Shown: positions 3,688-30,982, counted from the first letter of the stretch. The stretch: 34,135 bases of DNA from Candidatus Sericytochromatia bacterium (GCA_036676985.1 JAKFBU010000018.1:1-34135), one strand, 5' to 3'. Notes: generated by a model not told the origin, from the letters alone. Made by a program: numbers and translations.

Positions 3688-5226
3688 TCAATCCCCGTGA
3701 ATGCGGGCCTTGCTCACGATCATGGGGTGGTCGGACGTGTCCCGGACGAGCTTGCCCTGGTCCTTGACGTAGCCGCTGAAGGACACGTCCGACGAGCCGA
3801 AGATCCAGTCGATGCCCATCTGGCGGGGACGACCGTCGCGGCCTTCGTTGGCGGCGTTCATGTCCGTGCCCTTGGACATCCGGTTGAAGTACTCCTCGCG
3901 TTCGTTCATGTCGCCCGTCAGGAAGACCGGCTTGCCGCTCTTGCGCAGGCGGTTGACGAGGTCGATCTCGAGGTCGGTCGCCTTGTCGCGCCACTTCTCC
4001 TGGTCCGGGTGCTTGCGGGTGCTCGCGGGGTTGTGGAAGTTCGTGAAGTAGGCCTCCTGGCCCGTCTCCTTGTTGCGCAAGAGGACGACGGGCATGTCGA
4101 CCTTGTGGCCGCCGAAGTACGGGATGGCGATGCTGTCGGCCTTGACCAGGTCCCACTTGTCCTTGCGCCAGGCGATCGAGTTCGCGTTGGCCTGGCCGGG
4201 GAGCTTTTCACCGGGATAGACGCCGAACTTGTCGCCCGCCACCTTCTTGAACTCTCTCAGCTGGTCGCTCTGCAGCTCCTGGAAGCCCACCACGTCGACC
4301 TTGTGCTCGTTCAGGAGCTTGGCCGCGCGCCGGATGCGGGTGACGCCCGAGTCCATGCCCGGCTTCTCGCCGCCGGGCGTCGTGTGGCTGCTGCCGAGCA
4401 CGTTGAACGAGCTGATGACGAGATCCGTGGGCCCCTTGGCGCTCTGGGGGAGCGTCGGCTCCTCGAGGCCGTTGGCGGCCTCCGCCTGGTAGTCCGCCTT
4501 GATGGTCTCGCCCAGGATGCCGCCGAAGACCTCGGCCTTGCGGTCGGCCTCCTGGCCGTTGTGGAACTCGAGGCGCGAGACGCGGCGATCGCCGTCCAGG
4601 TCGTAGCCCCGGAACTCCTTGCCTTCCTTGCGGGAGAGGACGCCGTCGCCGTTGCGATCCAGGGCATCGAACCGCCCCTCGAACCGTTCGTCGCGCTTGG
4701 CCTTCCAATCGGCGCCCCGGCCCGCATGGAACTCCTCGCGCGTGACCTTGCCGTCGTCGTTCGCGTCGTAGCCCTCGAGCTCCCGGCCCTCGCGCTTGCC
4801 GAGCTTGCCGTTTCCGTCGGCATCCAACTGATCGAAGGTGTGGTTGCGGATGGCCTCGCGGGCCGTGGCGCGGTCGGCGCGCTGGCCCTGCAGGAACTCC
4901 TCCTTGGAGACCGAGCCGTCCTCGTCCTTGCCGTAGCGCCCGAAGCCCTGGGCTTCGGCCTCGTTCAGCTTGCCGTCGCCGTCGGCATCCAGGAGCTTGA
5001 AGTCCATGCGCGACTCTTTGCGCGAGACCTTGCCGTCGCCGTTGGCGTCGCGGGCGGCAAAGCGCGCGGCACCTCGCTCCAGCAGCTCCTTGCCGCTGAG
5101 CGTCCCGTCCTGGTTGGCATCCAGCTTTTCGAAGCGCGGATCGACCTTGCCCTTCTGGCCCTCTTCGGCCGCCTTGCGACCGCCAGGCTTGCTGGGATGG
5201 GGACGGGAGTCGGCGTTGATCTTCAT
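3688..5226 (-). CDS. Multi-EF-hand protein fused to an endonuclease/exonuclease/phosphatase (EEP) domain
   Basis: ATG at 5226 (MKINAD) follows GGAGG. About 8 DxDxDG-type loops, then EEP motifs SFNVLG, GFQE, NFHNP, TGDMN, IDWIF and SDHP. Confidence 0.85.
   Translation of the reverse strand: MKINADSRPHPSKPGGRKAAEEGQKGKVDPRFEKLDANQDGTLSGKELLERGAARFAARDANGDGKVSRKESRMDFKLLDADGDGKLNEAEAQGFGRYGKDEDGSVSKEEFLQGQRADRATAREAIRNHTFDQLDADGNGKLGKREGRELEGYDANDDGKVTREEFHAGRGADWKAKRDERFEGRFDALDRNGDGVLSRKEGKEFRGYDLDGDRRVSRLEFHNGQEADRKAEVFGGILGETIKADYQAEAANGLEEPTLPQSAKGPTDLVISSFNVLGSSHTTPGGEKPGMDSGVTRIRRAAKLLNEHKVDVVGFQELQSDQLREFKKVAGDKFGVYPGEKLPGQANANSIAWRKDKWDLVKADSIAIPYFGGHKVDMPVVLLRNKETGQEAYFTNFHNPASTRKHPDQEKWRDKATDLEIDLVNRLRKSGKPVFLTGDMNEREEYFNRMSKGTDMNAANEGRDGRPRQMGIDWIFGSSDVSFSGYVKDQGKLVRDTSDHPMIVSKARIHGD
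4560..5135 (-). repeat. Four tandem EF-hand pairs (coding repeat; approximate bounds)
   Basis: DANQDGTLSGKE, DANGDGKVSRKE, DADGDGKLNEAE, GKDEDGSVSKEE (degenerate), DADGNGKLGKRE, DANDDGKVTREE, DRNGDGVLSRKE, DLDGDRRVSRLE. Confidence 0.85.
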
Positions 5227-5436
5227 GAGGGCCTCCAGGCAATGACTTCTTACTGTCATGGATGTACCCGCGGCGCTGCGCCAGCTTGTGTCGCCTAACG
5301 AACTCTTAATGAAGCGCCCGAGCGCCGCCCGGCAACCGCGCCGAGAAACGTCGGCCATGGCGCCCAATCGATCGAGACGTCGTCCCGCTACGATCCGAGG
5401 TCGGTTGCTCGTTTTCGTGACGGATCGGAGGAGCGC

Positions 5437-5718
5437 ATGGACCACGACGCGGAGGTGGAGGCCCTGGCCCGCTCGCACTGGCGCGTGGGGCTGACGCTGA
5501 CGGCCCTCGTCATGGCCGTCTACTTCGGCTTCGTGCTCCTGGTCGCCTTCCAGAAGCCGCTGCTCGCCATGACGATCGCCCCGGGGCTGAGCCTCGGGAT
5601 CCTGGGCGGGGGACTCGTCATCGTGTTCGCCTGGCTGTTGACCGGCTGCTACGTACGCTGGGCCAATCGGCGCTACGACGCCGTGATCGCCCGGCTCAAG
5701 GCTAGCAAGGAGGGCTGA
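5437..5718 (+). CDS. yjcH: DUF485 (YjcH-like) small membrane protein
   Basis: Two TM helices and '[10 protein letters not shown]'. It lies directly upstream of actP, with a GGAGGAG RBS. Confidence 0.9.
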
Positions 5719-5719
5719 C

Positions 5720-7288
5720 ATGACCACGTCGTGGGGCCGCCCGGATCCGATCGCGATCGCCTTCTTCCTCGTCTTCATCGGCCTGACGCTCGCCGTCACG
5801 TACTGGGCGGCCAGACGCACCCGGAGCCCCCACGAGTTCTTTGCCGCCGGGGGCAACGTCTCGGCCGGCCAGAACGGGCTCGCGCTGGCCGGTGACTACA
5901 TGAGCGCCGCGAGCTTCCTCGGCATCGCGGGCATGGTGGCCCTCAAGGGCTTCGACGGGCTGATGTACTCCATCGGCTTCCTGGTGGGCTGGCCCGTCGT
6001 CATGTTCCTCATCGCCGAGCCCCTGCGCAACCTCGGCAAGTACACCTTCTCGGACGTCGTCGCCTACCGGCTCGGGCAGGCCCCGGCCCGGATCGCGGCG
6101 GCCATGGGCGGTCTGGCGGTGGTGACCTTCTACCTGATCGCGCAGATGGTGGGGGCCGGCAACCTCATCCAGCTCATGTTCGGCCTGCCCTACGAGTCGG
6201 CGGTCGTCATCGTGGGGGCCGTGATGCTCGCCTACGTCCTCTTCGGCGGCATGCTCGCGACCACCTGGGTACAGATCATCAAGGCCGTCCTCCTGCTCGG
6301 CGGAGCGAGCCTGCTCGCCCTCCTGGTGCTCGCACGCTTCGGCTTCAACCCGCTCGCGCTCTTCGCGGCGGCCGCGGCCCGGTACGGGGCGGCGAGCCTT
6401 GGGCCGGGCACGCTGGTGGCCAATCCTTGGGACGCGCTGTCTTTGGGCCTCGCCCTGATGTTCGGCACCGCCGGCCTGCCGCACATCCTCATGCGCTTCT
6501 ACACGGTGCCGGACGCCCCGGCCGCGCGCCGCTCGGTCTTCTTCGCCACCGGGCTCATCGGCTACTTCTACCTGGTCACCTTCGTCCTGGGCTTCGGGGC
6601 GGCCGTGCTCGTGGGCCGCGACGCTGTGACGGCCGTCGACAAGGGCGGCAACATGGCAGCCCCCATGCTCGCGGCCATGGTGGGCGGCACGCCCTTTTTG
6701 GGCTTCATCTCCGCGGTCGCCTTCGCGACCATCCTCGCGGTGGTGGCGGGCCTCACGCTCTCGGGCGCGGCCGCCCTCTCGCACGACCTGTGGTCCCATG
6801 TGGTGCGCAGAGGCCAGGCCCCGGAGCGCGAGCAGCTCGTCGTCGCCCGGGCGGCCACGGTGGCCCTGAGCCTGGTGGCGATCGCCCTGGGCATCGTCTT
6901 CAAGGGTCAGAACGTCGCCTTCATGGTGGGGCTGGCGTTCGCGATCGCAGCGAGCGCCAATCTGCCGGCGCTGCTCCTGTCGATCTTCTGGCGCCCCTGC
7001 ACCACGCTCGGGGCCGTGGCCTCCATGGTGACGGGCACCTGCTCGAGCCTGCTCCTCATCGTGCTCTCACCGGTCGTGCAGGTGGACATCCTGGGCCACG
7101 CGAGCGCCTGGTTCCCCCTCAAGAATCCGGCGCTCGTCTCCATGCCGCTCGCCTTCCTGGCGGGCATCGCCGTCTCGCTGCTCTGGCCCGAGGCCGCGGC
7201 GAGCGACCGCTTCGCGGAGCTGAAGCACCGGACTCACCTGGGGCCGACCCGGCGTGCCTCCGCGCGTCCCGAAACCGACGCGATGTGA
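5720..7288 (+). CDS. actP: Cation/acetate symporter ActP (SSS family)
   Basis: [48 protein letters not shown] and [18 protein letters not shown]. Confidence 0.95.
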
Positions 7289-7400: not shown

Positions 7401-9335
7401 TCAACCATGATCCGGCTCGCTGCCGTCTTCGAGCGGAGCCGGCCTCAGCGGCAGCGTGAACCAGAAGGTGGAGCCCTTGCCGAGCTCGCTCCAGACCCCG
7501 ATCTTGCCGCCGTGGGCCTCGACGATGGCCTTGCTGATCGATAGGCCGAGGCCCGTGCCCTTGCCCTTCCGGATGCCCGCCTCGAGCTGGGAGAATCGCT
7601 GGAACAGCTTGGGGATGTCCTCGCTCGCGATCCCCTCCCCCGTGTCCTCGATCTCGCAGCGCAAGTGATCGTCCGCCTGCCAGGCACGGATCCGGATCAT
7701 GCCTTCCGGCGCCGTGAACTTGAGGGCGTTGCCGATCAAGTTGGTAAGCACCTGCCCGATCCGTTGACCGTCCATGGTCGCCATGAGCGGCTCGGCCGGC
7801 AGCTGGGTCTCCATGTGCAGCCGTCCTTCCTCGAGCTGGGGCCGGAAGCTGTCGGCCGCCTGCCGGATCTTGTCGGCCAGGTCTTCGTCCTCGAGACGCA
7901 AGCGGAAGGTCCCGGCCTCGAGGCGCGCGAAGTCCAAGAGATCGTTCACGAGGAACTCCAGCCGCCGCGCGCCGTGCTCCAGCTGGTCCACGAACTCGCG
8001 CTGCAGGGCCGACAGTGGACCGCCGATCTCGTCCTCCAGGAACTCGGCGTAGCCCATGATGGAGGTGAGCGGGGTCCGGATCTCGTGGGAGACGGCGTTG
8101 ACGAAGTTCGTCTTGAGCACGTCCAGCTCCTGGAGCTTCTCGAACTGGGCCCTGAGCTGGTTCTCCAGTCGCTGGCGCTCCGTGACGTCCATGGCCACCC
8201 CGATGACGCCCGTCGTCGTCCCCGAGGGATCCTTCATGGGGCCGTACCAGACCTCGAAGACGTAATTATCGACCGTCACCAGGTCACTGAACGTCTCGCC
8301 GGCCAACGCCCGGCTGATATTCCGGGCGACGGCGGGCACGTCGGAAAAGTTCTCGTCGGCGCACAGTCCCACGAGCTGCTGGCGATCGCCCAGCAGGGCG
8401 AGCCCCTTGCCTTCGGCCATGGTAAAGCAGCCGTTCAAATCGGTGGCGAACAGGACGATGGGGGCGTTGGTCACGACCGTGCGCAGGCGTTGCTCGCTCT
8501 CGCGCAGGGAGTTGTAGAGGCGCGCCAGCTGCTCCGTGCGCTCCTGCACCTGCTGCTCCAGGTTCTCCGCATAGGCCTGCAGGCGGGCGGCCATCTGGTT
8601 GAAGTCGAGCCCCAGCTGGTCCAGCTCGTCCCGGGGCTCGCCGGGCACGGGGACATGGGCCGTGTAGTCCCCCGCCCCGAAGCGCCGGACCGCCGATACG
8701 AGGTCGTTCAGCCCCTGGGTGAGCCGGAAGCTCAGGACGACCGCCAGGACGGCGCTCAAGGCGAGGAAGAGCAGGATGATCGCGAGCGTGTAGAGCCGCG
8801 AGGTGTGCAGAATGGCCAGCTCCTCGGCCGCCGACGTCCCGATCCGGATGATGCCCGCTGGCTCCTTCAGGTAGCCCCGGACGTAGGGCACGGCGAGATC
8901 GAAGATCGCCTCTCCGCTCGGGAGCTTGTACGCCTGCGTCACCTGGTGGCCCGTCGCGAGCGACTCGAGCCCGCGGCGGGTGAGGTCGTCGTCGTAGCGC
9001 CGCCCGATCTGGCTCGGGTCGCTGTGCGCGATGGCCCGGCCGGTCTTCGCGTCGACGACGATGACGTAGCGGAGGCGCGGGTCCCGCTGCACCAGGGACT
9101 CCAGGTAGGCCTGCACCTGGTACTTGCCGGCGAACATGACCTGGTTGATGGATTGCTGGATGTTCGCCGCGTACAGGCGCTCGCGTTCGTGCACCTGCTG
9201 CAGGAGCATCTTGGTGTGGAAGGTGTTGAGGAAGGCCCCCAGGGTCCCGAGCGTCAGGGCCATGAAGCCGATCATGACGATCGTCAGCTTGGTCCGGATG
9301 GACCGGAAGCGCGTGGACGGCGTGCGGGTCACCAT
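7401..9335 (-). CDS. Membrane sensor histidine kinase (periplasmic Cache-like, HAMP, PAS, HisKA, HATPase)
   Basis: Two TMs flank a periplasmic domain. HAMP '[13 protein letters not shown]', H-box [12 protein letters not shown]-box [11 protein letters not shown]-box GTGLGL. ATG at 9335 overlaps the upstream stop codon. Confidence 0.92.
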
Positions 9336-10375
9336 ATCAGCCGACTCCCGGGCACGTGGGAGCTGGGGTCCCACGGCTTGCGGATCACGGTGGGAATGGG
9401 GCCCATCCAGCCGGGATAGGCGGCGAGGCTGGCCCGGGTCAGGGGATAGACCGTGAGCAGGACCTCGCGCGGAATCCGCTCGCCTCTAAGGAGGCGATAG
9501 GTCCAGCGCATGCTCTCCGCGCCGAGCGGCCCCATGAACTGGGCCGTATCGATGGCCAGGAGGCCGTCGCGCTCGAGCTCGGCGATCGCCCGGGGGTCTC
9601 CGTCGACCGTCGCCATCACGGCGTCGCGACGGCCCGCGCGCTGCAGCTCGCGCAGCACGCCCAGGCCGCCGCCGTCGTTGACACAGAAGATCGCATCGAT
9701 GGTCCCCGGCGGATGCCGGGCCACGATCTGCCGACCGGCCGCCTTGCCCCCGACCGGCTCGACGGCCTCGTAGCGGCCCACGATGCGGTAGGGAAGGCGC
9801 GCCTCGCCCAGAGCGTCGAGCAGACCTTCCACGCGCTCGATGGTCGAGGAGACGAACGGATACTCCACCAGCACGAGCCGCAGCGGCTTGGCTGCCGTTC
9901 GGCCCTTGAAGCGCTTGGCGAGATATTCCCCGTCGAGATGGCCGGCCAGGTGATTGTTGCTCGTCAGGTAGCAGGCGAGCTTTCCCTCGAGGACGTACTG
10001 ATCGTAGGCGACGACGGGAATCTTGGCCCGGTTGGCCGTGAGCACTGGCTTGGAGAGGGCCGCCGAGTCGATGGGCTGGAGGATGATCGCATCCACTTTC
10101 AGCTTGACCAGCCGGTCCATCGCGGCGATCTGGTTCCGGACGCCAGCCTCCCCGTCTCCGCCGACAAACGGGATGAGCTGCACGGGACGATCGGGGTGCC
10201 GTCGGTTGATCTCCTCGGCTGCCCGCTCGAGTCCGCGCCGCATGCCGACCTGACCCTGGATGGCCATGGACCAGTACACGACCCCGACCCGGTAAGGCGT
10301 TGCCGCGCGTGCCGGAAGCGCCGCGACCCCGATCGCGGCGAGGCAGGCTATGAACAGACGGACGATCCTTCGCAT
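9329..10375 (-). CDS. Periplasmic sugar-binding protein (RbsB/type I fold)
   Basis: Signal peptide [24 protein letters not shown]; '[12 protein letters not shown]', 'KIPVVAYD' and '[14 protein letters not shown]'. Confidence 0.85.
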
Positions 10376-11506: not shown

Positions 11507-11938
11507 CTAGGCCGGGGCGTCGCATGCGACCACCTCGTCGAGCACACCGGCGATGGTCTGAACGGCGAGCTCTTTCTCGAGGGCCCGCTGGGCGCGGGTC
11601 AAGGTGCCCAGGAGCGCCGTCTGGATGTTTCGACCGATGGGACAGGCGGGGTTCGGCTGCTCATGGTGCAGCGCGAAGAGCTCGCCTTCGTCGACGGCCC
11701 GGTAGACGTCCAGCAGCGTGATCTCGGCGGCGGGCCGCGCGAGCAGAGCGCCGCCTCCGACCCCCAGCTGGGACGTCGTGAGGCCCGCCTTGGAAAGCAG
11801 ACCCAAGAGCTTGCGGACGACGGCGGGGTTCGTGTTGGCGCTGCCGGCGATCCACTCGGAGGTCACGGGCTTGCCGCCGCTCTGGGCGAGCAGCGTCAGG
11901 ATGTGGACGCTCACGATGAACCGGCTGCTGATGGCCAT
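11507..11938 (-). CDS. Rrf2-family repressor, YwnA/SifR type
   Basis: SSRFIVSVHIL, TNPAVVRKL, ITLLDVYRAV and the HHEQPNPACPIGRNIQ Cys motif. It lacks the 3-Cys Fe-S motif of IscR/NsrR. Confidence 0.93.
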   Translation of the reverse strand: MAISSRFIVSVHILTLLAQSGGKPVTSEWIAGSANTNPAVVRKLLGLLSKAGLTTSQLGVGGGALLARPAAEITLLDVYRAVDEGELFALHHEQPNPACPIGRNIQTALLGTLTRAQRALEKELAVQTIAGVLDEVVACDAPA

Positions 11939-11951
11939 GGGCCCTCCTCTG

Positions 11952-11990
11952 ATGTGTAACCATTATGGATACACATTCCGGTTCTGTCAA
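11952..11990 (-). promoter_or_regulatory. Sigma70 promoter overlapped by an Rrf2 autorepression palindrome
   Basis: TTGACA (11985-11990)-N17-CATAAT (11962-11967). Palindrome ATGTGTAACCAT-T-ATGGATACACAT at 11952-11976 matches 11 of 12 positions. Confidence 0.8.
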
Positions 11991-14287
11991 GCCGTTTTCA
12001 CCGATTCGTTCGCCCCTTTCGGCAACGTGAACCAGAAGGTGCTGCCGCCATCGGACCCCGCGCTGCGCACGCCGATTCTGCCCCCGTGCGCCTCCACCAG
12101 GCCCTTGCTGATGGTCAGGCCCAGGCCCGTGCCCCCCACCCGGCGGGTGGAGCTCATGTCCAGCTGGACGAAGGGCTTGAACAGCTTGGCCTGATCGGTC
12201 GGCGAGATGCCGGGGCCCGTGTCCGTGACCTCGGTGACGACCTCGCCGTCCCGCTCGAAGGCGGCCACCTTGACGGCCCCGCCGGTGGGCGTGAACTTGA
12301 TGGCGTTCTCCACCAGGTTGGTCAGGACCTGGGTGACCCGCTCCGGGTCTAACGAGGCGACGAGGGGTTGCGGCAGGTCGCATGTCAGGGCGATCTCCTT
12401 GTGATCAGCAAGCGGCCGCAGGATGGACACGGCGTCCTCGAGCACGGAGTCGTACGGCGCGACCTGCTTGTTGATCGACAGCTTTCCCGCCTGCAGTCGG
12501 CTCATGTCCAGCAGGTTGTTGACCAGCGCGAGCATGCGATCGGACCCATTCTGGATCTTGGCCAGGTATTCGTGCTGCTGCGGGTTGAGGGGGCCCGCGA
12601 GCTCGTCGTCGAGGATGCTCGTGAAGCCCGTGATGAAGTTGAGCGGGGTCCGCAGCTCGTGGCTGATGACGGACAGGAACTCGTCCTTGTAACGGTCTGC
12701 TTCCTCGAGGGCCGCGATCTTCTCCTGCTGGAGCTTTTCCCGCTCGACGCGCTCGGAGACCTCCTGGGCCAGGATCAGCACCCCATCGTTCTCGCCGCCG
12801 TCCAGGACCGGATAGTAGACGATGTCCCAGTACGTGTGGCGCTCCTGGCCGTCGAGAGCGTAGACGAAGGGGAAGCTCGAGGCACGATACGGCCTGCCGG
12901 TCTCGAGGGTGCCGCAGAGCAGCCCCGCGACTTGCCGCTCCGCGTCGGGCCCGAAGATCTCGGCGATCGCATGGCCGACGATCCGGTGGGGCGGAATGCC
13001 GGTGAGCCGGGAGTATTCGGGATTCGCCCAGCGAAAGACCAGGTCGCGGTCCAGGTAGGCGATGGCGGCGGGCGTGTTCTGGATGATGCGATCGGCGAAC
13101 GCCCGCTCGTGTGCCACCTCTTGCGCCCGTTCCGCCAGCGCGGCCTCCGCCTGCTTGCGCTCGGTGATGTCCCGGAAGGCGACGACCACCCCTGTCACGT
13201 CGCCCCGCTCGCGGATGGGCGTCGCGAGGTATTCCACCGGAAAGTGCGTGCCGTCCTTGCGCCGGAAGACCTCCTCCACCGAGTGGGAGGGCCGTCCGGT
13301 CCGCATGACCGCCTGGATGGAGCAGTCCTCCGCCGGGAGGGACCCGCCGTTCGCCGTCTGGCGATGAATCAGGTCGTGCCACGACTTGCCCAGCAGCTCT
13401 TCGGCCGTGTAGCCCGTCATCTCCGTGCCGGCGGGGTTCACGAAGGTGATCCGGCCCGCGGCGTCCTGGCCGACGATGCCCTCGCCGATGGACTGGAGGA
13501 TCAGGTTGTTCACGTTCCGCTGGGCGGAAAGCAGGTCCTCCATGTGCCGCTTGTACGAGCTCAGGAGGGCGATCACCAGGATGAAGAGGGTGCCGGCGCC
13601 GATGGCCGCCGCGCCGAGGTTGTCGATCCGCAGGGCCGGGCCCCGCGGTGTGGCGGCGACCTCGAGGGGCACGTATCGCGCGGCGGCCATCCCGGTGTAG
13701 TGCATGCCGGCGATGGCGATCCCGATGAGGACGGCGGCTCCGATCTTGAGGACGCCGACGTGCGCGGGGGCCGTGCCGCGCAGCCGGAAGGTCAGCCAAA
13801 GCGCGCTGATGCAGCCGGTGACGGCGATGACGATGGAGGCCGCCACGAGCCACGGGTCGTAGCGAAGGGCATAGGGCATCCGCATGGCCGCCATGCCGCA
13901 GTAGTGCATGGCGGCGATGCCGAAGCCCATGAGCAGGCCTCCCGCCAGCAGGCAGCGCAGGCCGAGCGCCATGCGGCTCGCGACGTACAGCCCCCACCAG
14001 GACGCGGCGATGGCCACCAGCATGGAGGCGACGGTCAGGACCACGTCGTAGGCGGCGGGGCCATGCTCCTTGTAGGCCAGCATGCCGGTGAAGTGCATCG
14101 ACCAGATGCCGATCCCCATGGCCGCCGCGCCGCCCATGAGCCAGTGCCTCCGGGCACGGTCGCGGGCTTGGGTGACGCGGCTCGCCATGTCGAGGGCGGT
14201 GTAGCCGGCGCCGATGGCGATCAGGATGGAGAGGACGACGAGGATCGGATCAAAGCTGCTCATCGCCCCATGGGACGCATGGTGCAT
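11987..14287 (-). CDS. MHYT-PAS-PAS histidine kinase
   Basis: MHFTGM, MHYCGM and MHYTGM motifs in the TM region; two PAS domains; SHELRTPL; NAIKFT; GGTGLGL. The start is either 14287 or 14263. Confidence 0.92.
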   Translation of the reverse strand: MHHASHGAMSSFDPILVVLSILIAIGAGYTALDMASRVTQARDRARRHWLMGGAAAMGIGIWSMHFTGMLAYKEHGPAAYDVVLTVASMLVAIAASWWGLYVASRMALGLRCLLAGGLLMGFGIAAMHYCGMAAMRMPYALRYDPWLVAASIVIAVTGCISALWLTFRLRGTAPAHVGVLKIGAAVLIGIAIAGMHYTGMAAARYVPLEVAATPRGPALRIDNLGAAAIGAGTLFILVIALLSSYKRHMEDLLSAQRNVNNLILQSIGEGIVGQDAAGRITFVNPAGTEMTGYTAEELLGKSWHDLIHRQTANGGSLPAEDCSIQAVMRTGRPSHSVEEVFRRKDGTHFPVEYLATPIRERGDVTGVVVAFRDITERKQAEAALAERAQEVAHERAFADRIIQNTPAAIAYLDRDLVFRWANPEYSRLTGIPPHRIVGHAIAEIFGPDAERQVAGLLCGTLETGRPYRASSFPFVYALDGQERHTYWDIVYYPVLDGGENDGVLILAQEVSERVEREKLQQEKIAALEEADRYKDEFLSVISHELRTPLNFITGFTSILDDELAGPLNPQQHEYLAKIQNGSDRMLALVNNLLDMSRLQAGKLSINKQVAPYDSVLEDAVSILRPLADHKEIALTCDLPQPLVASLDPERVTQVLTNLVENAIKFTPTGGAVKVAAFERDGEVVTEVTDTGPGISPTDQAKLFKPFVQLDMSSTRRVGGTGLGLTISKGLVEAHGGRIGVRSAGSDGGSTFWFTLPKGANESVKTA

Positions 14288-14465
14288 CAATCGGGATTGC
14301 CTCCAGCTAGCTCTGATCCCCATTATGCCATGATCTTCACGATAGGCTCACGCTGGGGCCCGGCTCGCGGGATCCGATTCCCACGGAGCGACGCGTCGCG
14401 GGCGGACTTGAACGCCCTGCGACCTGGTGGCGGTCCCAGCCGCCTCTGGCTGTTCGGTGCGGTGG

Positions 14466-22527: not shown

Positions 22528-23035
22528 AAGGCCAGTATCTCATGGCGGACCCCCGCGAGGCTTGCCTCACCGCGCCGGTGCGACGCCGCGGGCGGAACTT
22601 CTCGACGGAGGGCCGCTTCGCCTGCGGAGAGGCCCTCAAGGTCGTTGGTTTGGCGGTGCCTCCCGGCGATCGCCGAAACAAATGGCGGTTTGACGGACGA
22701 TTACCCTATCAACGCGAAACCGAAATAAATTTCGCAGTATTGGCGCAAATTCTCGCGCTTCGGATCGCTCTTCCCATTAGAACTGTCTCATTATTGCCGG
22801 ATTGGGCCACCGATCCAGAAAGCTCGAAAAGTCCCGGCCCCGTTGATGCTGGTCGCTGAAAATCAGCGCAACGGCGCCCACCGAGAGCGCCTTGCGTGAA
22901 CTCGTACGGCCAAGTGTCAGTCAGAGCCCGCATTTCTGACATCAATTCCTGTGATGTGTTAACAGTTGTAACTAAGCTAGCTCATATTCCCCCCTAAACT
23001 GCCTCAAGTAACAGATAAGGTGGAGGAATAGGTCG

Positions 23036-23335
23036 ATGCTGCATCCCGTGTCTGGTTTCGAGGAAATTCGGCTCAGTAAGCTCACCAGCATTGCTGGGCA
23101 GGGCTATAAAGCCGATTCTCACTTGTTCCTGACGTTGCCTGCCGTCCTGATGCTCGTCTCGGTGGCCGCCTGCGCTTGGCGATCGGCGAACGGGATGCTG
23201 CTGACGATGGTGGCGCTCAGCGGTATCTGCGTCCTGGCTGCCATATTCGGTCTCAACCTCCTCGTCAGGACGTTTCAAGAGTTATTTCGCGCCGAGGCAG
23301 GGCCCGGCCCGGATGCCCCGGGCTCCGGGTCCTAG
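23036..23335 (+). CDS. Hypothetical 2-TM membrane protein at the head of the nor cluster
   Basis: GGAGG RBS and two hydrophobic helices. It ends 28 nt before norC. Codon usage is atypically AT-rich. Confidence 0.55.
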   Translation: MLHPVSGFEEIRLSKLTSIAGQGYKADSHLFLTLPAVLMLVSVAACAWRSANGMLLTMVALSGICVLAAIFGLNLLVRTFQELFRAEAGPGPDAPGSGS

Positions 23336-23363
23336 ACCGTCGACGCGAAGAAAGGAGAATTCC

Positions 23364-24218
23364 TTGGACAACGAGAAAGCCGCCGCGCTAGGCAAGTGGC
23401 TCTTCTTCGGCGGCACCGCGGTGAGCCTCGCGGTCATGTTCTTCTACCTGGCCCCCCTGTCGCTGGCGCACATGGACAAGTCCGGCCACATCGAGGGCAA
23501 GTCGGTCCCTGCCGAGGTGGTGAAGGGCAAGCAGGTCTTCCACAAGTTCGTCTGCATCGACTGCCACACCATCCTCGGTGACGGCACGCAGTACGCCCCC
23601 GATCTCGGCCGCGTGGCCATCTCGCGGGATGACGACTTCCTGAAGAAGTGGGTCCGCGATGCGCGCGGCATCAACCCCAACAGCGCCATGCCCTCCTTCC
23701 CGGCGATGACCGAGGAAGAGGCCTCGGATCTCGTCGCCTTCCTCAACTTCACCAGCAAGGTGAACCTGCCCGAGGACCTCTGGGCGGACATGAAGGCGAA
23801 GAAGGATCCTTACGACAAGCGCGCGTACCAGAAGGAGACCAACCCCTTCGCCCTCAGCTACTGGCCGCCCCGCCCGATGAGCGCGGACAAGGCCGCCGTC
23901 GCGACCACCGCCTCGACGCAGGATCCCCTGGTCGCGGAGGGTGAGCAGCTCTTCCACTCGAACTCGGTGGCCTCCTGCAATACCTGCCACGCGATCGGTG
24001 GCCAGGGTGGGCAGATCGGTCCCGATCTCACCGACATCGGCAGCGCGACCCGCAAATCGCGGTTCGGCAACCCGGTCGACGCCAAGTTCCTCGAGGTCAA
24101 GTTGGTCGATCCGGCTGCGGACAACCCCGCGAAGACGTCGGCGATGCCCTCGTTCAAGGCTCTCTCGGATCACCAGCGCAGCGCCCTGGTGGCCTACCTG
24201 CGAACCCTCGGGCAGTAG
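23364..24218 (+). CDS. norC: Nitric oxide reductase cytochrome c subunit, di-haem variant
   Basis: TTG after AAGGAG; N-terminal anchor 'FFGGT'; CIDCHTILGDG..YAPDL; MPSF; WPP; a second domain with CNTCH, GPDL and SAMPSF. Confidence 0.85.
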   Translation: MDNEKAAALGKWLFFGGTAVSLAVMFFYLAPLSLAHMDKSGHIEGKSVPAEVVKGKQVFHKFVCIDCHTILGDGTQYAPDLGRVAISRDDDFLKKWVRDARGINPNSAMPSFPAMTEEEASDLVAFLNFTSKVNLPEDLWADMKAKKDPYDKRAYQKETNPFALSYWPPRPMSADKAAVATTASTQDPLVAEGEQLFHSNSVASCNTCHAIGGQGGQIGPDLTDIGSATRKSRFGNPVDAKFLEVKLVDPAADNPAKTSAMPSFKALSDHQRSALVAYLRTLGQ

Positions 24219-24230
24219 AAAGGAACCGGT

Positions 24231-25649
24231 ATGTCCCTATCCATCAAATATGAAAGTCAGCGCCTGGCATACCCCTTCTTCCTGATGTCTGGCCTGGTGT
24301 TCGGTCTTCAGATCATCTTCGGCCTCCTGGCGGCGGCCCAGTTCATCTGGCCTCAGCTGGGCCTGGGCACGGTGCCCTTCAACATCTCCAAGGCCGTGCA
24401 CGTCAACTGCCTGGTCGTCTGGCTGCTCATGGGCTTCATGGGCGCCACCTACTACATGACTCCGCTCGAGTGCGAGCGGGAGATCTTCAGCCCCTTGCTC
24501 GCCAAGATCCAGTTCTGGGCCCTCTCGGTCGCCGCGGTGGTGGTCGTCCTGGGCTACGTCTTCGACGGCGTCACGGGCCATGCGTTCAACAACCTGTTCC
24601 TGGACACGGGGCTCTTCTCGGAAGGCCGCGAGTACCTGGAGGCTCCCCGCTGGGCCGACTGGGCCATCGTGGGCGTCATCCTGATGTACCTCTACAATGT
24701 GGGCATGACCTACTTCAAGGGCAAGAAGACCGACATGATGGTCATGATGCTCGTGGGTCAGTTGTGCCTGGCGGTCGCGTACCTCCCGGGCATGTTCTTC
24801 AACCCGGCCATCTCCAATGACCTCTTCTGGCGCTGGTGGGTCATCCACTACTGGGTCGAGGGCTCGTGGGAGCTCATCGCCTCGGCCATCCTGTGCTTCC
24901 TCCTGATGACCATCCTCAAGGCCCCCCGTCGCTCGATGGAGCGCTGGATGTGGCTCGAGGTCGCGCTCGTCATGATCTCCGGCCTGCTCGGCATCGGCCA
25001 CCACTTCTACTGGATCGGCACCCCTCAGATGTGGCTGTGGATCGGCTCGATCTTCTCGGCCATGGAGCCCATTCCCCTGCTCCTGATGGTCTGGGACGCG
25101 TTCCGGCACAGCCAGGAGCATGCGCGCAGCATCACCAACAAGCCCGCCATTTACTGGACGGTCGGTCACGCGCTGTTCAACTTCGTCGGCGCCGGCCTCT
25201 GGGGCGTCATCCACACGCTCGCCCCGGTCAACGCCTACACCCACGGCACCCAGATGACGGTCGCCCACGGCCACCTGGCTTTCTTCGGCGCCTACTCGAT
25301 GCTGATCATCGCTGCCTGGTACGTGGCGCTGCCGACGCTCCACGGCTACACCTCGGAGACGGCGTGGGATCAGAGTCGCGGCATGAAGGGCTTCTGGTGG
25401 ATGGTGATCTCCATGTGCACCATCACGCTCGTCCTGACGGGCGCCGCCCTGGTCCAGGTCTACCTGGAGCGGGTGGTCGGCATGGACTTCGTCGTCGTGA
25501 AGACCCAGTACAACATGGTCTTCTGGATCGGTCGCTTCATCGCCGGTGGCGCGTTCCTGTGGGGCTGCGTCTACGTCTGGCGCGACCTCATCCGGATCGC
25601 TCCGGCACAGGCACCCAAGGCCTCGGCGCACCTCGCGCCGACCGCCTAA
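24231..25649 (+). CDS. norB: Nitric oxide reductase catalytic subunit (cNOR)
   Basis: VHVN, GREYLE, WWVIHYWVEGSWE, GHHFYWIG, SAMEP and HGHLAFFGAY give six His ligands and five NOR glutamates. There is no His-Tyr crosslink tyrosine. Length is 472 aa. Confidence 0.95.
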   Translation: MSLSIKYESQRLAYPFFLMSGLVFGLQIIFGLLAAAQFIWPQLGLGTVPFNISKAVHVNCLVVWLLMGFMGATYYMTPLECEREIFSPLLAKIQFWALSVAAVVVVLGYVFDGVTGHAFNNLFLDTGLFSEGREYLEAPRWADWAIVGVILMYLYNVGMTYFKGKKTDMMVMMLVGQLCLAVAYLPGMFFNPAISNDLFWRWWVIHYWVEGSWELIASAILCFLLMTILKAPRRSMERWMWLEVALVMISGLLGIGHHFYWIGTPQMWLWIGSIFSAMEPIPLLLMVWDAFRHSQEHARSITNKPAIYWTVGHALFNFVGAGLWGVIHTLAPVNAYTHGTQMTVAHGHLAFFGAYSMLIIAAWYVALPTLHGYTSETAWDQSRGMKGFWWMVISMCTITLVLTGAALVQVYLERVVGMDFVVVKTQYNMVFWIGRFIAGGAFLWGCVYVWRDLIRIAPAQAPKASAHLAPTA

Positions 25650-25660
25650 CGGACACGCTG

Positions 25661-25691
25661 ACGTCGCGCCCCGGCTGCCGGGGCGCGACGT
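25661..25691. promoter_or_regulatory. Intra-operon GC hairpin after norB
   Basis: ACGTCGCGCCCCGGC-T-GCCGGGGCGCGACGT with perfect 15-bp arms and no U-tract. Confidence 0.7.
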
Positions 25692-25712
25692 TCGCCAAAC
25701 GGAGGTTACTCG

Positions 25713-25820
25713 ATGGACACGTTCATGCTGGGGTTCACCGGCGTCTTCCTGATCGTCACGATGTTTGGCGGCCTTTTCGCGCTTTACAAGATCAACCAGC
25801 GCCTGTCTGCGGAGGGCTAA
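25713..25820 (+). CDS. 35-aa single-TM microprotein (absent from the ORF track)
   Basis: GGAGG 7 nt before the ATG; MDTFMLGFTGVFLIVTMFGGLFALYKINQRLSAEG; tightly packed in the operon. Confidence 0.75.
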   Translation: MDTFMLGFTGVFLIVTMFGGLFALYKINQRLSAEG

Positions 25821-25823
25821 GTC

Positions 25824-26003
25824 ATGTCGCATCACTACATCACGTTCTTCTTCCTGTTCGTCTGGATGATCGCCCCTCTCATCTGCTTCTGGCGGGCGCC
25901 GCACAAGAACCGTGACCCCTACGTCTGGATCTTCTTGGCGACCCTCCTGGGTCCCCTCGTCGCGCTGGTCTTCCTGAGCCTTCCGGCCAAGCGGACCGCC
26001 TAG
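25824..26003 (+). CDS. 59-aa 2-TM microprotein (absent from the ORF track)
   Basis: GGAGG RBS lies inside the previous gene's end; MSHHYITFFFLFVWMIAPLICFWRAPHKNRDPYVWIFLATLLGPLVALVFLSLPAKRTA; high GC3. Confidence 0.8.
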   Translation: MSHHYITFFFLFVWMIAPLICFWRAPHKNRDPYVWIFLATLLGPLVALVFLSLPAKRTA

Positions 26004-26013
26004 AAAGAGACTT

Positions 26014-26961
26014 ATGTCCAACCTGGCGAATACCTTCGGGCGTCGCTACTTCCGCAACCGCAAGGTTGTCCAGATCCTGACGACGCTCTTCTGGCTTTCG
26101 CTCCCGCTTTCGGGGCTGCTGCAGGTCGATATCCGCCATCTGGCTCTCGTCGTCGCGGGGCGGCCCTGGCCGCCGCGCGTCATCCTGCCGGCTGACGCCC
26201 TCAAGCGAGGGGCAACCGCCCACTGGGACGTGGTGGCGCCCGTGCTCCTGCAGGGCGTGCTGCCGGTTTTGATCCTGGCGATCGCCGTCATCACGACGGC
26301 GCGCTTCTTCGGACGCGTGCACTGCGGCTACAGCTGCACCTACGGCTTGCTGGCCGAGACGGGCGAGGCCATGTTCCGCTGGGCCAAGCAGCCCGCTCCC
26401 GGTCGAGCCTTGCGCCTCGCCCTGGTCTGGCTGGGGGTGGTCCTCGCGGCGCCCTTCGTCGCGTTCACGATCATGTCGCTGTTCGTCAGGCCCGAGGGCG
26501 TGATCGGGGGCTTCCAGAACCACAACCTGGGGATCATCGTCCCCTTCTCGTACCTCACGGCCCTGGCGGTGGCCGTGGGCGGCTTCGTCCGGCTGTACTT
26601 CTGCCGCTACATCTGCGGCGTGGGCCTCATTCAGACGCTGTCCTGGATGACCAACAAGAAGGCGCTCGAGGTGGGCTTCAACCCCACGGCCGCCGCCGAC
26701 GGCTCCCACGGGTCGATGCGGGATTGCACCGGCTGCCATGCCTGCAAGAAGGCATGCCCCATCGGCTTCGACCCGCGCCAGCCCAAGCGGTACATGATGG
26801 CCTGCTTCCAGTGCGGAGAGTGCCTGAAGGCCTGCGAGGACGAACTCCTGCCGCTCGGACGGGGGATCGCGATCGGGTTCCACTTCCAGGATCCCCTCTA
26901 TCCCTTGCCCGCCCAGGAGGTGAAGCACCAGCCACGGCCCGGGAATGAAGCCGAGCATTGA
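26014..26961 (+). CDS. Membrane 4Fe-4S polyferredoxin, CcoG/FixG/NapH-like
   Basis: GRVHCGYSC, FCRYICG, CTGCHACKKACP and CFQCGECLKAC; about 4 TMs. Confidence 0.88.
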   Translation: MSNLANTFGRRYFRNRKVVQILTTLFWLSLPLSGLLQVDIRHLALVVAGRPWPPRVILPADALKRGATAHWDVVAPVLLQGVLPVLILAIAVITTARFFGRVHCGYSCTYGLLAETGEAMFRWAKQPAPGRALRLALVWLGVVLAAPFVAFTIMSLFVRPEGVIGGFQNHNLGIIVPFSYLTALAVAVGGFVRLYFCRYICGVGLIQTLSWMTNKKALEVGFNPTAAADGSHGSMRDCTGCHACKKACPIGFDPRQPKRYMMACFQCGECLKACEDELLPLGRGIAIGFHFQDPLYPLPAQEVKHQPRPGNEAEH

Positions 26962-27041
26962 GCTACCTCATAGCCCTGGGGATCAGGTTTCGTTTATGGT
27001 CGACTCCCGCGCCCGTCAATCGTTCGAAAGGTGGAACTGCC

Positions 27042-27233
27042 ATGCCGAAGCCCGCGTCCCAGGATGAGACCCGCCTGCCTGCTCAGCAGGCCGATACGGA
27101 GGTCGAGAAGCTTTACGAGAGCTGCTGCGGTTCGTGCGGTTCGCCCAGCCCGACGAGCTCGGGCGTTGCGCTGGAGGTGCTGACCCCGGTTCCCATGGCG
27201 ACCGATCGGGGGAACGGTCACAGCAAGCCCTAG
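27042..27233 (+). CDS. 63-aa peptide with a CCGSC motif
   Basis: AAGGTGG RBS; MPKPASQDETRLPAQQADTEVEKLYESCCGSCGSPSPTSSG... Confidence 0.5.
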   Translation: MPKPASQDETRLPAQQADTEVEKLYESCCGSCGSPSPTSSGVALEVLTPVPMATDRGNGHSKP

Positions 27234-30529: not shown

Positions 30530-30982
30530 TCAGCCATGCTCGACCGCTTCCTGATGGCGGTGCGGCGCCCGCCGGTATACTTCGGTCGATAGGTCGGCGA
30601 GCGTCACTCGGCTGAACTGCTCCAACACCAGCGCTTCCGCCTCTCGGAGCGACTGATTGATGGTCTGGTTGACGACCTGTTCGACGAGACAGGTTGGCTC
30701 GTCGTTGCGGTGGCCCAGCCCGAGCATGGCGGGCTCGCCAAGGGCCTTGTAGACGTCGCCCAGCGTGATGTCGCCAAGGTCGCAGGCAAGGGTCCAGCCG
30801 CCGCCATGACCCTTCACCGAGTGTATCCAGCCGGCTTCGCGCAGGCCGGACAACGTCCGGCGGACGACGACCGAGTTGGTTTGCAGGGCGGCGCCCATCT
30901 CCTCAGAGGTCATCGGACGCTGCTTGTGCGCCAGATGCAGCAGGAGATGGAGGACCATCGACAGGCGGCTGTCTCTTTTCAT
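30530..30982 (-). CDS. Rrf2-family transcriptional regulator
   Basis: DSRLSMVLHLLLH, TNSVVVRR, KGHGGGW, ITLGDVY and PTCLVEQ. Confidence 0.93.
   Translation of the reverse strand: MKRDSRLSMVLHLLLHLAHKQRPMTSEEMGAALQTNSVVVRRTLSGLREAGWIHSVKGHGGGWTLACDLGDITLGDVYKALGEPAMLGLGHRNDEPTCLVEQVVNQTINQSLREAEALVLEQFSRVTLADLSTEVYRRAPHRHQEAVEHG

Follow-up and report, generated by a model that had tools for sequence, protein, structure and literature searches.

The stretch of DNA analysed here, in the following called the window, comprises 34,135 nucleotides from a Candidatus Sericytochromatia bacterium (GCA_036676985.1 JAKFBU010000018.1:1-34135). All seven co-oriented open reading frames (ORFs) of the original prediction exist at the positions predicted for them on the plus strand. 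The first of them, orf1 (23036-23335), encodes 99 amino acids (aa) and is followed by norC, whose longest ORF (23313-24218) begins with an ATG at 23313 and comprises 301 aa. The start of norC is probably the TTG at 23364 (23364-24218), which has the sequence AAAGGAG 7 nt upstream and a position common to the relatives; with this start the 23-nt overlap with orf1 disappears. A gap of 12 nt separates norC from norB (24231-25649; 472 aa). Downstream of norB lie p35 (25713-25820; 35 aa), p59 (25824-26003; 59 aa), the gene of a NapH/CcoG-like membrane polyferredoxin (26014-26961; 315 aa), called ferredoxin below, and p91 (26958-27233), encoding a CCGSC peptide of 91 aa from a TTG start. Third-position GC amounts to 0.86-0.93 in norC, norB, p35 (0.86), p59 and the ferredoxin gene, and to 0.75-0.76 in orf1 and p91. 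Shine-Dalgarno-like (SD) sequences precede orf1, norB, p35, p59 and the ferredoxin gene. Two transmembrane (TM) helices were predicted by a simple hydropathy scan in orf1, one in p35, two in p59, four in the ferredoxin and none in p91. The CCGSC peptide had been counted as a member of the cluster, a view that was given up since p91 homologues sit elsewhere in related genomes.

About 50 nt upstream of orf1 a promoter-like site (TTAACA, 18 nt, CATATT; 22959-22988, plus strand) was found as the single sigma-70-like match between 22500 and 27900. On its own this site is weak evidence because shuffled sequences give a mean of 0.7 matches. The surrounding block from TTGTAACTAAG to AGCTCATAT is conserved in the orthologous upstream region of the related genome G012, but not at the related loci L004 and L005. 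Directly after the stop codon of the ferredoxin gene there is a weak terminator-like hairpin with a five-pair stem and a T-rich tail (26975-26997, plus strand), which is only suggestive since seven terminator-like sites were found in the region and 4.0 are expected. The cluster is surrounded by unrelated genes for a pseudouridine synthase, a metallo-beta-lactamase fold protein, a TetR protein, a phosphotransferase and a methyltransferase. Two Rrf2-family regulators are also encoded within the window.

The NorB protein matches that of Pseudomonas aeruginosa (3o0r_B) over residues 4-448 (E 3.5e-110) and aligns end to end both with it and with the Roseobacter denitrificans structure (PDB 4xyd; E 5.3e-97). 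It nests within clades of cytochrome c-dependent nitric oxide reductases (cNORs) that contain structurally solved enzymes. The haem and FeB ligands of a cNOR are all present: alignment A1 shows no variation at H57, H206, E210, E214, H257, H258, E279, H346 and H348, and the eight tabulated ones other than H57 are kept in 81 of 81 loci compared. They align with H60, H207, E211, E215, H258, H259, E280, H347 and H349 of P. aeruginosa NorB, which comprise the ligands of haem b, haem b3 and FeB together with the Glu cluster. NorC, a membrane-anchored c-type cytochrome with CxxCH and Met directly upstream of NorB as in a cNOR, matches 3o0r_C with residues 27-152 (E 2.7e-13); its TM anchor spans about residues 26-52, and C81xxC84H85 as well as M126 are invariant in alignment A5. 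Next come an insert of some 29 aa specific to the clade, a WPP motif and another haem c domain of class I (residues ~205-301, C222xxC225H), so that NorC contains two CxxCH motifs in total. The Pfam model Cytochrom_C detects two stretches, the best one at 207-299. This second domain occurs in the source genome and G012 and is missing in L004 and L005; therefore it is dispensable.

For the NorB of cNORs that do not use NorQ and NorD, the chaperones of iron insertion, a signature of four residues was published in 2025. The window NorB has P232 and R234 in place of the acidic pair at the NorD-docking positions (D220/E222 in Paracoccus denitrificans), and the hydrophilic residues E243 and D289 at the plug positions of the K-channel analogue (I244 and F290 in P. 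aeruginosa). Both the existence of cNORs without NorQD and the sequence signature of their NorB have been published (Appelgren and Adelroth 2025, PMC12067857). That paper proposes the D/E pair on NorB as the docking site of NorD and describes the K-analogue positions of the NorQD-independent class as "often E" and "hydrophilic, often H". Our comparison of 81 loci agrees with this report, bearing in mind that kin are not independent in this set, in which Marinobacter and Shinella/Rhizobium dominate one side and Nitrospirota the other. The plugged type with I and F/Y was found at 50 of the 81 loci, always together with the D/E pair (50/50), and 49 of these have NorQ and/or NorD in the flank; the one other, L050, stops at norB. 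The remaining 31 loci show the open type with E and D/H; 29 of them lack the D/E pair, and neither NorQ nor NorD was found in any of the 31 flanks.

No gene for a MoxR ATPase or a VWA protein lies near norCB in the window. The claim that norQ, norD, nirS and nosZ are missing from the window holds, because the genome's own NorQ, NorD and NirS match only contig C76 in tblastn searches and nosZ is located on contig C67; a qNOR-like gene is present in addition. Contig C76 carries nirS (Cytochrom_D1, 496 bits), a cytochrome c gene, norC, norB and the genes of NorQ (AAA_5 and CbbQ_C) and NorD (VWA). The NorQD genes of the source genome go with another norCB pair, a paralogue of that in the window, whose signature is reversed: the four diagnostic positions read D, E, I, Y in the C76 paralogue versus P, R, E, D in the window NorB. 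The occurrence of both cNOR types within one genome is a new point.

The window type of NorB was found in 4 of 47 genomes of the class, including the source genome, and the order orf1-norC-norB-p35-p59-ferredoxin is kept in all four. Most of the accessory ORFs, p91 being the exception, are conserved beside norCB in the nearest clade, in support of the original prediction. No NorQ or NorD gene lies in the flanks of L004, L005 and L084. Searches of the three other genomes with the cluster found neither CbbQ_C nor NorD (0/3 each), an absence that is not proof in metagenome-assembled genomes of 96, 93 and 91 % completeness. All three relatives have nirS, nirK or nosZ within about 5 kb of the cluster, and nosZ is present in 4/4 genomes. 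In G012, the cluster adjoins a cytochrome c gene and nirS, whose product is 81 % identical to the NirS of the source genome, and sits where the latter has norCBQD; its NorB is the only cNOR found in G012. The cluster of G002 is divergent from nosZDF, and in G003 NirK is encoded 4.7 kb away.

Three orphan small membrane proteins of the operon, orf1, p35 and p59, are new here. Orf1 has a strong SD sequence (AAGGTGGAGGAA) and combines a conserved N-terminal segment, TSIAGxGYxxDSHLFLT, with its two predicted TM helices. It is located directly upstream of norC in the other three genomes (52-77 % identity; dN/dS 0.26-0.43). It matches no family in Pfam and NCBIfam; a profile search yielded 43 proteins, every one of them without a name or labelled "hypothetical", and in no case does a Pfam family cover the orf1 module. 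The gene of the single-TM peptide p35 is preceded by the SD sequence ACGGAGG and lies between norB and p59 in 4/4 genomes (31-74 % identity); its dN/dS of 0.43-0.88 is nearly neutral between the more distant pairs. The protein p59 forms a predicted TM hairpin with a conserved loop, APxKxRDPYxW, on the predicted cytoplasmic side. It has 20 invariant columns across the four genomes and a dN/dS of 0.33-0.77, and a search of 1.84 billion sequences returned three representatives below E 1e-10. Neither p35 nor p59 was assigned to a family of Pfam or NCBIfam. More speculatively, the three proteins may be clade-specific small structural or assembly subunits.

The ferredoxin belongs to the superfamily of NapH/CcoG/NosR-type membrane polyferredoxins, as its four predicted TM helices, two CX3C motifs (C104/C108 and C197/C201) and two 4Fe-4S motifs of the form CxxCxxCxxxC (238-248 and 264-274) indicate. 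The Pfam models Fer4_5, Fer4_8 and Fer4_18 score 27.6, 35.0 and 29.1 bits (cut-offs 22, 27 and 27). Assignment to CcoG (TIGR02745) was rejected at 64.9 bits versus a cut-off of 316.7; the alignment covers no more than positions 52-276 of the 435 in the profile, hence the C-terminal part is missing. NapH/MauN (TIGR02163) was likewise rejected (31.6 versus 213.05 bits), and no NapH above the cut-off was found in the 47 class genomes. Orthologues scoring 400 bits or more are present in 4/4 genomes with the window type of NorB, always adjacent to it, versus 0/43 of the others. All four encode a bona fide CcoG separately, that of the source genome (C76:79184-80458; 441.6 bits) near a cbb3-like gene. 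In a tree, the nor-linked ferredoxins stand apart from nine CcoGs with full support. Homologues directly after norB exist in Nitrospirota and in Marinobacter/Halopseudomonas; they share about 27-30 % identity with the window ferredoxin over nearly the full length (~80-111 bits) and group with it (SH-aLRT 83, not starred). This nor-linked subfamily, extending to Nitrospirota and Marinobacter, is a further new point. Since Marinobacter and Halopseudomonas have the ferredoxin alongside NorQD (norCB-fdx-norD), it is not simply a replacement of NorQD. Nor is it a general requirement of cNORs without NorQD, as the flanks of the 13 other open-type loci do not contain it; these loci come from Chloroflexota, Acidobacteriota, Gemmatimonadota, Sulfurimonas-like bacteria, Aquificota and others.

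We infer the roles of the accessory proteins. CcoG is an assembly factor of cbb3 oxidase acting as a cupric reductase, and by analogy the ferredoxin might act as a reductase that matures or maintains the metal centre of NorB; we rate this as the most likely role, albeit tentatively. A NapH-like quinol dehydrogenase feeding NorC from the quinone pool, which would make the enzyme a quinol-linked cNOR bypassing bc1 and soluble cytochrome c, would suit the NapH-like architecture. NapH models score the nor-linked homologues as well as CcoG models do (45-67 bits on the NapH model for those from other phyla), and a membrane-bound donor would fit the additional haem domain of NorC. However, all 12 cysteines of the ferredoxin are predicted to be cytoplasmic, the cluster lacks a NapG-like periplasmic Fe-S partner, L004 and L005 keep the ferredoxin without the extra haem domain, and a gene for a soluble-type cytochrome c adjoins the G012 cluster. 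Such a donor function is therefore unlikely and ranks below the reductase.

The six-gene block from orf1 to the ferredoxin gene (23036-26961) is probably one operon encoding a cNOR of the NorQD-independent type. The alternative that the NorQD of C76 act in trans to mature the window enzyme, their absence from the window being a mere matter of gene location, can appeal to the presence of both proteins in the same genome; it is very improbable in view of P232/R234 at the positions where all 50 plugged-type NorBs sampled have D and E, of the open-channel residues, and of the relatives in which NorQ and NorD were not found. The earlier proviso that norQD might lie elsewhere and be required was thus right as to the location, while the evidence argues against the requirement. 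An enzyme that only detoxifies NO and has no link to denitrification would agree with the unrelated neighbours in the source genome and with a window devoid of nir and nos, but it is hard to reconcile with the nir and nos genes beside the relatives' clusters and with G012, where the enzyme is the sole cNOR and part of the nirS island; we consider it improbable. Least probable by far is a membership of NorB in a putative N2O-reducing haem-copper family without NO reductase activity, which Murali et al. (2024, PMC11214002) report as a near relative of cNOR, since NorB groups with cNORs of solved structure, lacks none of the cNOR ligands and keeps the Glu cluster, and ordinary nosZ occurs in every one of the four genomes.

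Judged by sequence, the window operon is a genuine second NO reductase operon of an already described, NorQD-independent kind. The prediction of a cNOR operon without norQD is borne out. The term "non-canonical" was too strong, because cNORs without NorQD and their signature are described in PMC12067857, and a di-haem NorC is the rule among the non-NorQD clades sampled. "Self-contained, possibly for detoxification" does not fit a genome with nirS-cyt c-norCBQD, nosZ and a qNOR-like gene; together with the denitrification genes beside the relatives' clusters, these point to a respiratory enzyme belonging to a known cNOR class. Electrons would enter via periplasmic c-type cytochromes and, in the source genome and G012, through the extra haem c domain carried by NorC, similar to CcoP in cbb3 oxidases. 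FeB might reach its site through the open cytoplasmic channel without NorQD. In denitrification the enzyme would partner NirS or NirK as the reductase of NO; in the source genome it would be an additional isoenzyme next to NorCB(QD). More speculatively, the ferredoxin, itself of the NapH/CcoG/NosR kind, would face the cytoplasm. The unstudied conserved membrane proteins of the operon are candidates for how NorQD-independent cNORs are matured, and the enzyme may, as originally proposed, have different partners for electron delivery and metal maturation.

With the cNORs of P. aeruginosa and R. denitrificans (3o0r, 4xyd) the window enzyme shares the two subunits, the haem/FeB ligands, the Glu cluster and a NorC anchor with haem c and Met. 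It differs in the lack of adjacent norQD, in P and R for the D/E pair, E and D for the I/F plug, the NorC insert and second haem c, and in the additional small membrane proteins and ferredoxin. Thermus thermophilus NorCBH resembles it in the absence of norQD and of the acidic pair, in hydrophilic K-analogue residues and in a small membrane-protein gene after norB. However, according to Appelgren and Adelroth (2025, PMC12067857) NorH is found in only a small group of thermophiles, and the window clade has three small proteins and a polyferredoxin; the source genome additionally carries a NorQD-dependent cNOR. CcoG is similar to the window ferredoxin in its Fer4_5-type CX3C motifs, two 4Fe-4S motifs and a gene beside an enzyme related to the C-family of haem-copper oxidases, but the ferredoxin scores far below the cut-off, is truncated at the C-terminus and coexists with a true CcoG. 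NapH/NosH proteins share the length of about 300 aa, four predicted TM helices, cytoplasmic Cys motifs and the linkage to a denitrification enzyme, whereas the window ferredoxin stays below the NapH cut-off and no NapG/NosG-like partner is encoded. The norCB-ferredoxin-norD clusters of Marinobacter/Halopseudomonas and the di-haem norC-norB-ferredoxin clusters of Nitrospirota have the ferredoxin directly after norB, as in the window, but lack orf1, p35 and p59; the former furthermore possess norQ, norD, a mono-haem NorC and a plugged-type NorB. Metagenomes carrying DNA of the clade are of soil or groundwater type.

By sequence, the core enzyme encoded by the cluster (23036–26961, +) is an ordinary cNOR. 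NorB matches the NorB structures of P. aeruginosa (E 3.5e-110) and Roseobacter (E 5.3e-97) over almost its full length, and the match to qNORs is much weaker. A cbb3-type oxidase, a reading prompted by FixO, CcoP and CcoG-like matches, was rejected since NorB matches cNOR structures at E 1e-110 and cbb3 chains (CcoN) at 1e-6 to 1e-8 only. Residues H57, H206, E210, E214, H257, H258, E279, H346 and H348 align to the P. aeruginosa positions which we take to be the haem ligands, the FeB ligands and the glutamate cluster. An alignment of 11 sequences shows no variation at any of the nine, and the eight tabulated ones (all but H57) are retained in 81 of 81 related loci. NorC matches its P. aeruginosa counterpart with residues 27–152 (E 2.7e-13), including the invariant C81, C84 and H85 (CxxCH) and M126. 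Past this region follow a clade-specific insert of about 29 aa, a conserved WPP motif and then a second class I haem c domain (C222xxC225H; Pfam Cytochrom_C stretch 207–299). The NorC of G012, a genome of the same class, is also di-haem (84 % identity over residues 11–301); those of the orthologous loci L004 and L005 are mono-haem and end right after the WPP motif.

The seven co-oriented open reading frames (ORFs) described originally were all found. The first six, orf1, norC, norB, p35, p59 and the ferredoxin gene, are densely packed with gaps of 12 nt (norC-norB), 63 nt (norB-p35), 3 nt (p35-p59) and 10 nt (p59-ferredoxin). GC3 lies between 0.86 and 0.93 in five of them and at 0.75 in orf1, and a Shine-Dalgarno-like sequence is located upstream of orf1, norB, p35, p59 and the ferredoxin gene. 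The longest norC frame begins with an ATG at 23313 and overlaps orf1 by 23 nt. However, the TTG at 23364 is the more likely start because AAAGGAG is found 7 nt upstream and because the norC orthologues begin at the equivalent position, with TTG in L004 and L084 and with ATG in L005. A simple hydropathy scan predicts two TM helices in orf1, one in p35, two in p59 and four in the ferredoxin as well as the NorC anchor. A sigma-70-like site (22959–22988, +) within a sequence block kept in the closest orthologous locus is the only match upstream of orf1, and no FNR/DNR- or NsrR-type box was recognised there by eye. The window also encodes two Rrf2-family regulators (30530–30982, −, and 11507–11938, −; 51.5 and 56.7 bits, superfamily cut-off 73.3), one of them 3.3 kb downstream of the nor cluster; they match HypR, RirA and CymR weakly, with no NsrR equivalog among the families listed.

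NorQ and NorD are chaperones for FeB insertion. In a recent classification of 259 NorBs (Appelgren and Adelroth, FEBS Lett 2025, PMC12067857), 195 of 195 NorBs with NorQD nearby are reported to retain an acidic pair on the surface, proposed to dock NorD (D220 and E222 in P. denitrificans), and to have the K-channel analogue plugged by two hydrophobic residues (I244 and F290 in P. aeruginosa). According to the same study, the 34 NorBs without NorQD are variable at the acidic pair and hydrophilic at the plug pair, and the authors suggest that an open K-channel analogue could make such cNORs electrogenic. At these four positions, read from a HMMER alignment to 3o0r_B and a MAFFT alignment, the window NorB has P232, R234, E243 and D289, and its NorQD-linked paralogue on contig C76 of the same genome has D, E, I and Y. 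Among 81 loci (this paralogue, L002, and L004–L083), 50 are of the plugged type (I plus F/Y), all with the D/E pair and 49 with a NorQ and/or NorD match within the 6-kb flanks; the exception, L050, stops at norB. The other 31 are of the open type (E plus D/H) with NorQ or NorD in none of the flanks and the D/E pair missing in 29. Since many of the loci come from Marinobacter and Shinella/Rhizobium and 16 from Nitrospirota, they are strongly clustered by lineage, and this count agrees with the published rule (PMC12067857) but is no independent statistical test. The operon described originally is real, but less exotic than the label "non-canonical" implies; by its NorQD-independent signature, the enzyme belongs to a known, recently defined cNOR class. 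Di-haem NorC, present in 23/31 open-type loci vs 3/50 plugged-type loci, is common outside the model organisms; an extra cytochrome domain on NorC-like ORFs of Nitrospirae was remarked in passing earlier (PMC8756737).

The closest NorBs in a species-level genome collection belong to two MAGs labelled Oscillatoriaceae cyanobacterium and Candidatus Sericytochromatia bacterium (75–76 % identity), followed by Nitrospirota (50–53 %). In a maximum-likelihood tree ("quick" method; 47 of 82 rows kept, 35 near-duplicate Marinobacter and Shinella/Rhizobium rows dropped), the window NorB groups with L004 and L005 under full support, and the Nitrospirota join them as sister group at SH-aLRT 87 (not starred); the paralogue on C76 falls among the NorQD-type NorBs, which make up a distinct, starred clade. 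Of the 47 genomes of the class, 16 show a NorB match at E 1e-60 or better. The window type is restricted to four of the 47: the window's genome, G012 (93 %), G002 (75 %) and G003 (77 %). The loci L085 and L086 from G002 and G003 duplicate L004 and L005 with identical scores; hence, four distinct genomes are counted. The other 12 genomes possess the NorQD-linked type only, with NorQ beside norB in 12 of 12 loci. The presence of cNOR and qNOR in Sericytochromatia was already noted (PMC6349859). The Photo_RC family has no match in the window's genome (estimated completeness 100 %; Synechococcus control positive), which fits a non-photosynthetic sister lineage of Cyanobacteria.

The statement that norQ and norD are absent holds for the window, but both are encoded in the same genome on contig C76. 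There, a nirS island (C76:99500–117500, L110) comprising nirS itself, three other cd1-like frames and genes resembling those of haem d1 biosynthesis continues into a cytochrome c gene, a di-haem norC, norB, norQ and norD. This second NorB is 42 % identical to that of the window; NorQ shows AAA_5 and CbbQ_C domains, NorD a C-terminal VWA domain and NirS a Cytochrom_D1 match of 496 bits. Furthermore, the genome contains nosZ (nos_propeller, 113.8 bits) and a NirK-like gene under the family cut-off, and NarG was not found above its family cut-off. A qNOR-like open frame of 778 aa (C64:34636–35856, L003), 27 % identical to NorB, would add a third candidate haem-copper NO reductase.

The order orf1-norC-norB-p35-p59-ferredoxin is identical in all four genomes, so that the accessory genes are conserved together with the reductase. 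Between the window's genome and G012, dN/dS (Nei-Gojobori) is 0.37 for orf1, 0.54 for p35, 0.33 for p59, 0.26 for the ferredoxin and 0.15 for norB; it stays below 1 in all pairs with up to 0.88 for p35 (L004 vs L005), the synonymous rates being probably underestimated at such GC3. In G012 a cytochrome c gene comes next after the cluster (C96:47–3959, −) and then, in divergent orientation, nirS, whose product is 81 % identical to NirS of the window's genome and which is accompanied by nirE/F/DLGH/J/N-like genes, labelled by position and similarity to the C76 island. The window-type enzyme is the only cNOR found in G012. Since the same nirS island flanks norCBQD in the window's genome, the NorQD-independent module of this sister genus (C96:1–16000, L121) occupies the place of the NorQD-dependent one, which suggests module replacement between two cNOR types at one locus. 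In G002, orf1 and a nosZ-nosD-nosF-like set point away from each other, and in G003 a NirK (338 bits, above the family cut-off) is encoded 4.7 kb past the ferredoxin gene; nosZ is present in all four genomes. Neither the CbbQ_C family nor the NorD of the window's genome was matched in the three other cluster-bearing genomes (completeness 96, 93 and 91 %). The cluster had originally been regarded as a self-contained unit, possibly for NO detoxification. Its position near nir or nos genes in three relatives speaks against this and argues for a respiratory role in denitrification. In the window the neighbours are a pseudouridine synthase, a metallo-beta-lactamase fold protein, a TetR regulator, a phosphotransferase and a methyltransferase; here, the cluster has merely ended up in an unrelated gene context.

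The window ferredoxin matches Fer4_5, Fer4_8 and Fer4_18, each above the cut-off. It remains far under the curated cut-offs for CcoG (64.9 bits, cut-off 316.7; profile positions 52–276 of 435) and NapH (31.6 bits, cut-off 213), the nor-linked homologues stay below both as well, and among PDB sequences only generic 2×4Fe-4S matches were obtained (E at least 0.034). According to the positive-inside rule, the N-terminus, both CX3C and both 4Fe-4S motifs are predicted to be cytoplasmic, a placement like that of the motifs in NapH. A bona fide CcoG (441.6 bits) is encoded separately on C76, near a cbb3-like gene about 30 kb upstream of the nirS island. In the class, 30 of 47 genomes have such a separate CcoG, among them the four that carry the nor cluster, and none of the 47 has a NapH above cut-off. 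At a threshold of 400 bits, orthologues of the ferredoxin are confined to the four genomes with window-type NorB and always lie beside norB; the next match in the class reaches 69.7 bits. In a collection of 5.8 billion proteins the family comprises 23 clusters at 53 % identity or more, named, if at all, "4Fe-4S dicluster domain-containing protein", "ferredoxin-type protein NapH" or "polyferredoxin".

Distant homologues (about 27–30 % identity, near full length) directly follow norB in other lineages. In Nitrospirota they lie within the flank in 12 of 16 loci, upstream in one of these 12 (L009); of the four loci that have no homologue, two break off no more than 46 nt from norB. Among plugged-type loci, 23 of 50 have a homologue, all from Marinobacter or Halopseudomonas, in the order norC-norB-ferredoxin-norD; the flanks of the 13 remaining open-type loci contain none. 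A tree with no outgroups other than 9 CcoGs and 2 NapH-like proteins separates the 22 nor-linked proteins from CcoG with full support; they group at SH-aLRT 83 (not starred) on long branches, which is compatible with, though no proof of, a nor-associated ferredoxin subfamily. A description of a ferredoxin adjoining norCB was not found in the open-access article texts searched. Marinobacter nauticus (L037, 7481–8431) and Halopseudomonas yangmingensis (L045, 7480–8388), both carrying the gene between norB and norD, are cultured and genetically tractable hosts.

HMMs of orf1, p35 and p59 matched this clade only among all loci examined, and nothing in Nitrospirota, Marinobacter or other nor loci; the three proteins are therefore additions specific to this clade. 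In addition, six Nitrospirota loci have no small TM ORF in the gap between norB and the ferredoxin gene. Orf1 combines a strongly conserved N-terminal segment with its two predicted helices. Its profile collects 43 proteins of 61–115 aa, which are either unnamed or "hypothetical" and lack a Pfam family over the module; for eight of them the length of the longest contig equals that of a ferredoxin match, which suggests shared contigs. The p59 protein has 20 invariant columns including the loop APxKxRDPYxW and only three representatives under E 1e-10 among 1.84 billion; p35 is conserved chiefly as a hydrophobic helix. Look-ups in the ESM Atlas gave no family for p59 (best 0.91, unnamed clusters) or orf1 (best 0.76), and orf1 matched no PDB sequence. 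A PLDc_N-type module in p59 was considered and is unsupported, as Pfam assigns no family to p59 itself or to the N-terminal module of its distant relatives; zinc-ribbon or GYF_2 domains occur downstream in several of these. A complex prediction of NorB, NorC (residues 18–195) and p35 (score 0.01, mark 0.32) speaks neither for nor against p35 as a partner.

Following the published work on the class, FeB would arrive without an ATP-driven chaperone, possibly via the open K-channel analogue. By analogy, the second haem domain fused to NorC may be an electron-entry domain and orf1, p35 and p59 may be subunits or assembly factors. CcoG serves the maturation or maintenance of the metal centre in cbb3 oxidase, and the family also has members for the reductases of nitrate (NapH), nitrite (NirI) and N2O (NosR/NosH) beside that of oxygen (CcoG). 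The ferredoxin could be a quinol dehydrogenase or a cytoplasm-facing Fe-S oxidoreductase for metal-centre maturation or maintenance; the latter, by analogy with CcoG, is preferred because no periplasmic partner is encoded and because the protein coexists with NorQD in Marinobacter. A wider reading makes the nor-linked ferredoxin the NO-reductase member of the NapH/NirI/NosR/NosH/CcoG family, a cytoplasm-facing Fe-S reductase which would supply or re-reduce the FeB iron through the open K-channel analogue and, in this clade, would form together with orf1, p35 and p59 the missing chaperone-free FeB maturation route in a cNOR rendered electrogenic by the open channel; taken as a whole, we hold it to be improbable.

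For the supply of non-haem iron in NorQD-less cNORs, the locus offers candidates, namely the nor-linked polyferredoxin and three orphan membrane proteins. What makes it valuable is this conserved set of candidates for maturation without chaperones and the occurrence of both cNOR types in one genome, a natural experiment extended by the sister genus with the independent module at the norCBQD place in the nirS island. In addition, denitrification modules (nirS, two cNORs, a qNOR-like gene and nosZ) are documented in a non-photosynthetic relative of Cyanobacteria from soil/groundwater-type metagenomes, which bears on who makes and consumes N2O in these habitats. The sequencing runs listed as containing the stretch are of DNA type, from soil, groundwater and rhizosphere, with no RNA run among them.

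The CCGSC peptide p91 (26958–27233, inner ATG 27042) had been counted as a member of the operon and has to be removed from it, as its homologues in G012, G016, G017 and G018 are located away from nor genes and from the genes flanking the window cluster. A weak terminator-like hairpin lies between the ferredoxin stop and the inner ATG. In G018, the match falls on the Cys-rich N-terminal portion of a 277-aa Methyltransf_31 protein, which presumably resembles arsenite methyltransferases; p91 may be either a free-standing copy or a leftover of that Cys-rich module. Elsewhere in the window, a 722-aa protein (3688–5856, −) matches the XopAW calcium-binding effector family (70.6 bits) and lanmodulin (32.3 bits) below threshold, which suggests EF-hand-like metal-binding repeats. 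Two large sensor histidine kinases are encoded at 11987–14323 (−) and 7401–9374 (−), the former with an N-terminal membrane module matching NF038348 at residues 23–255.
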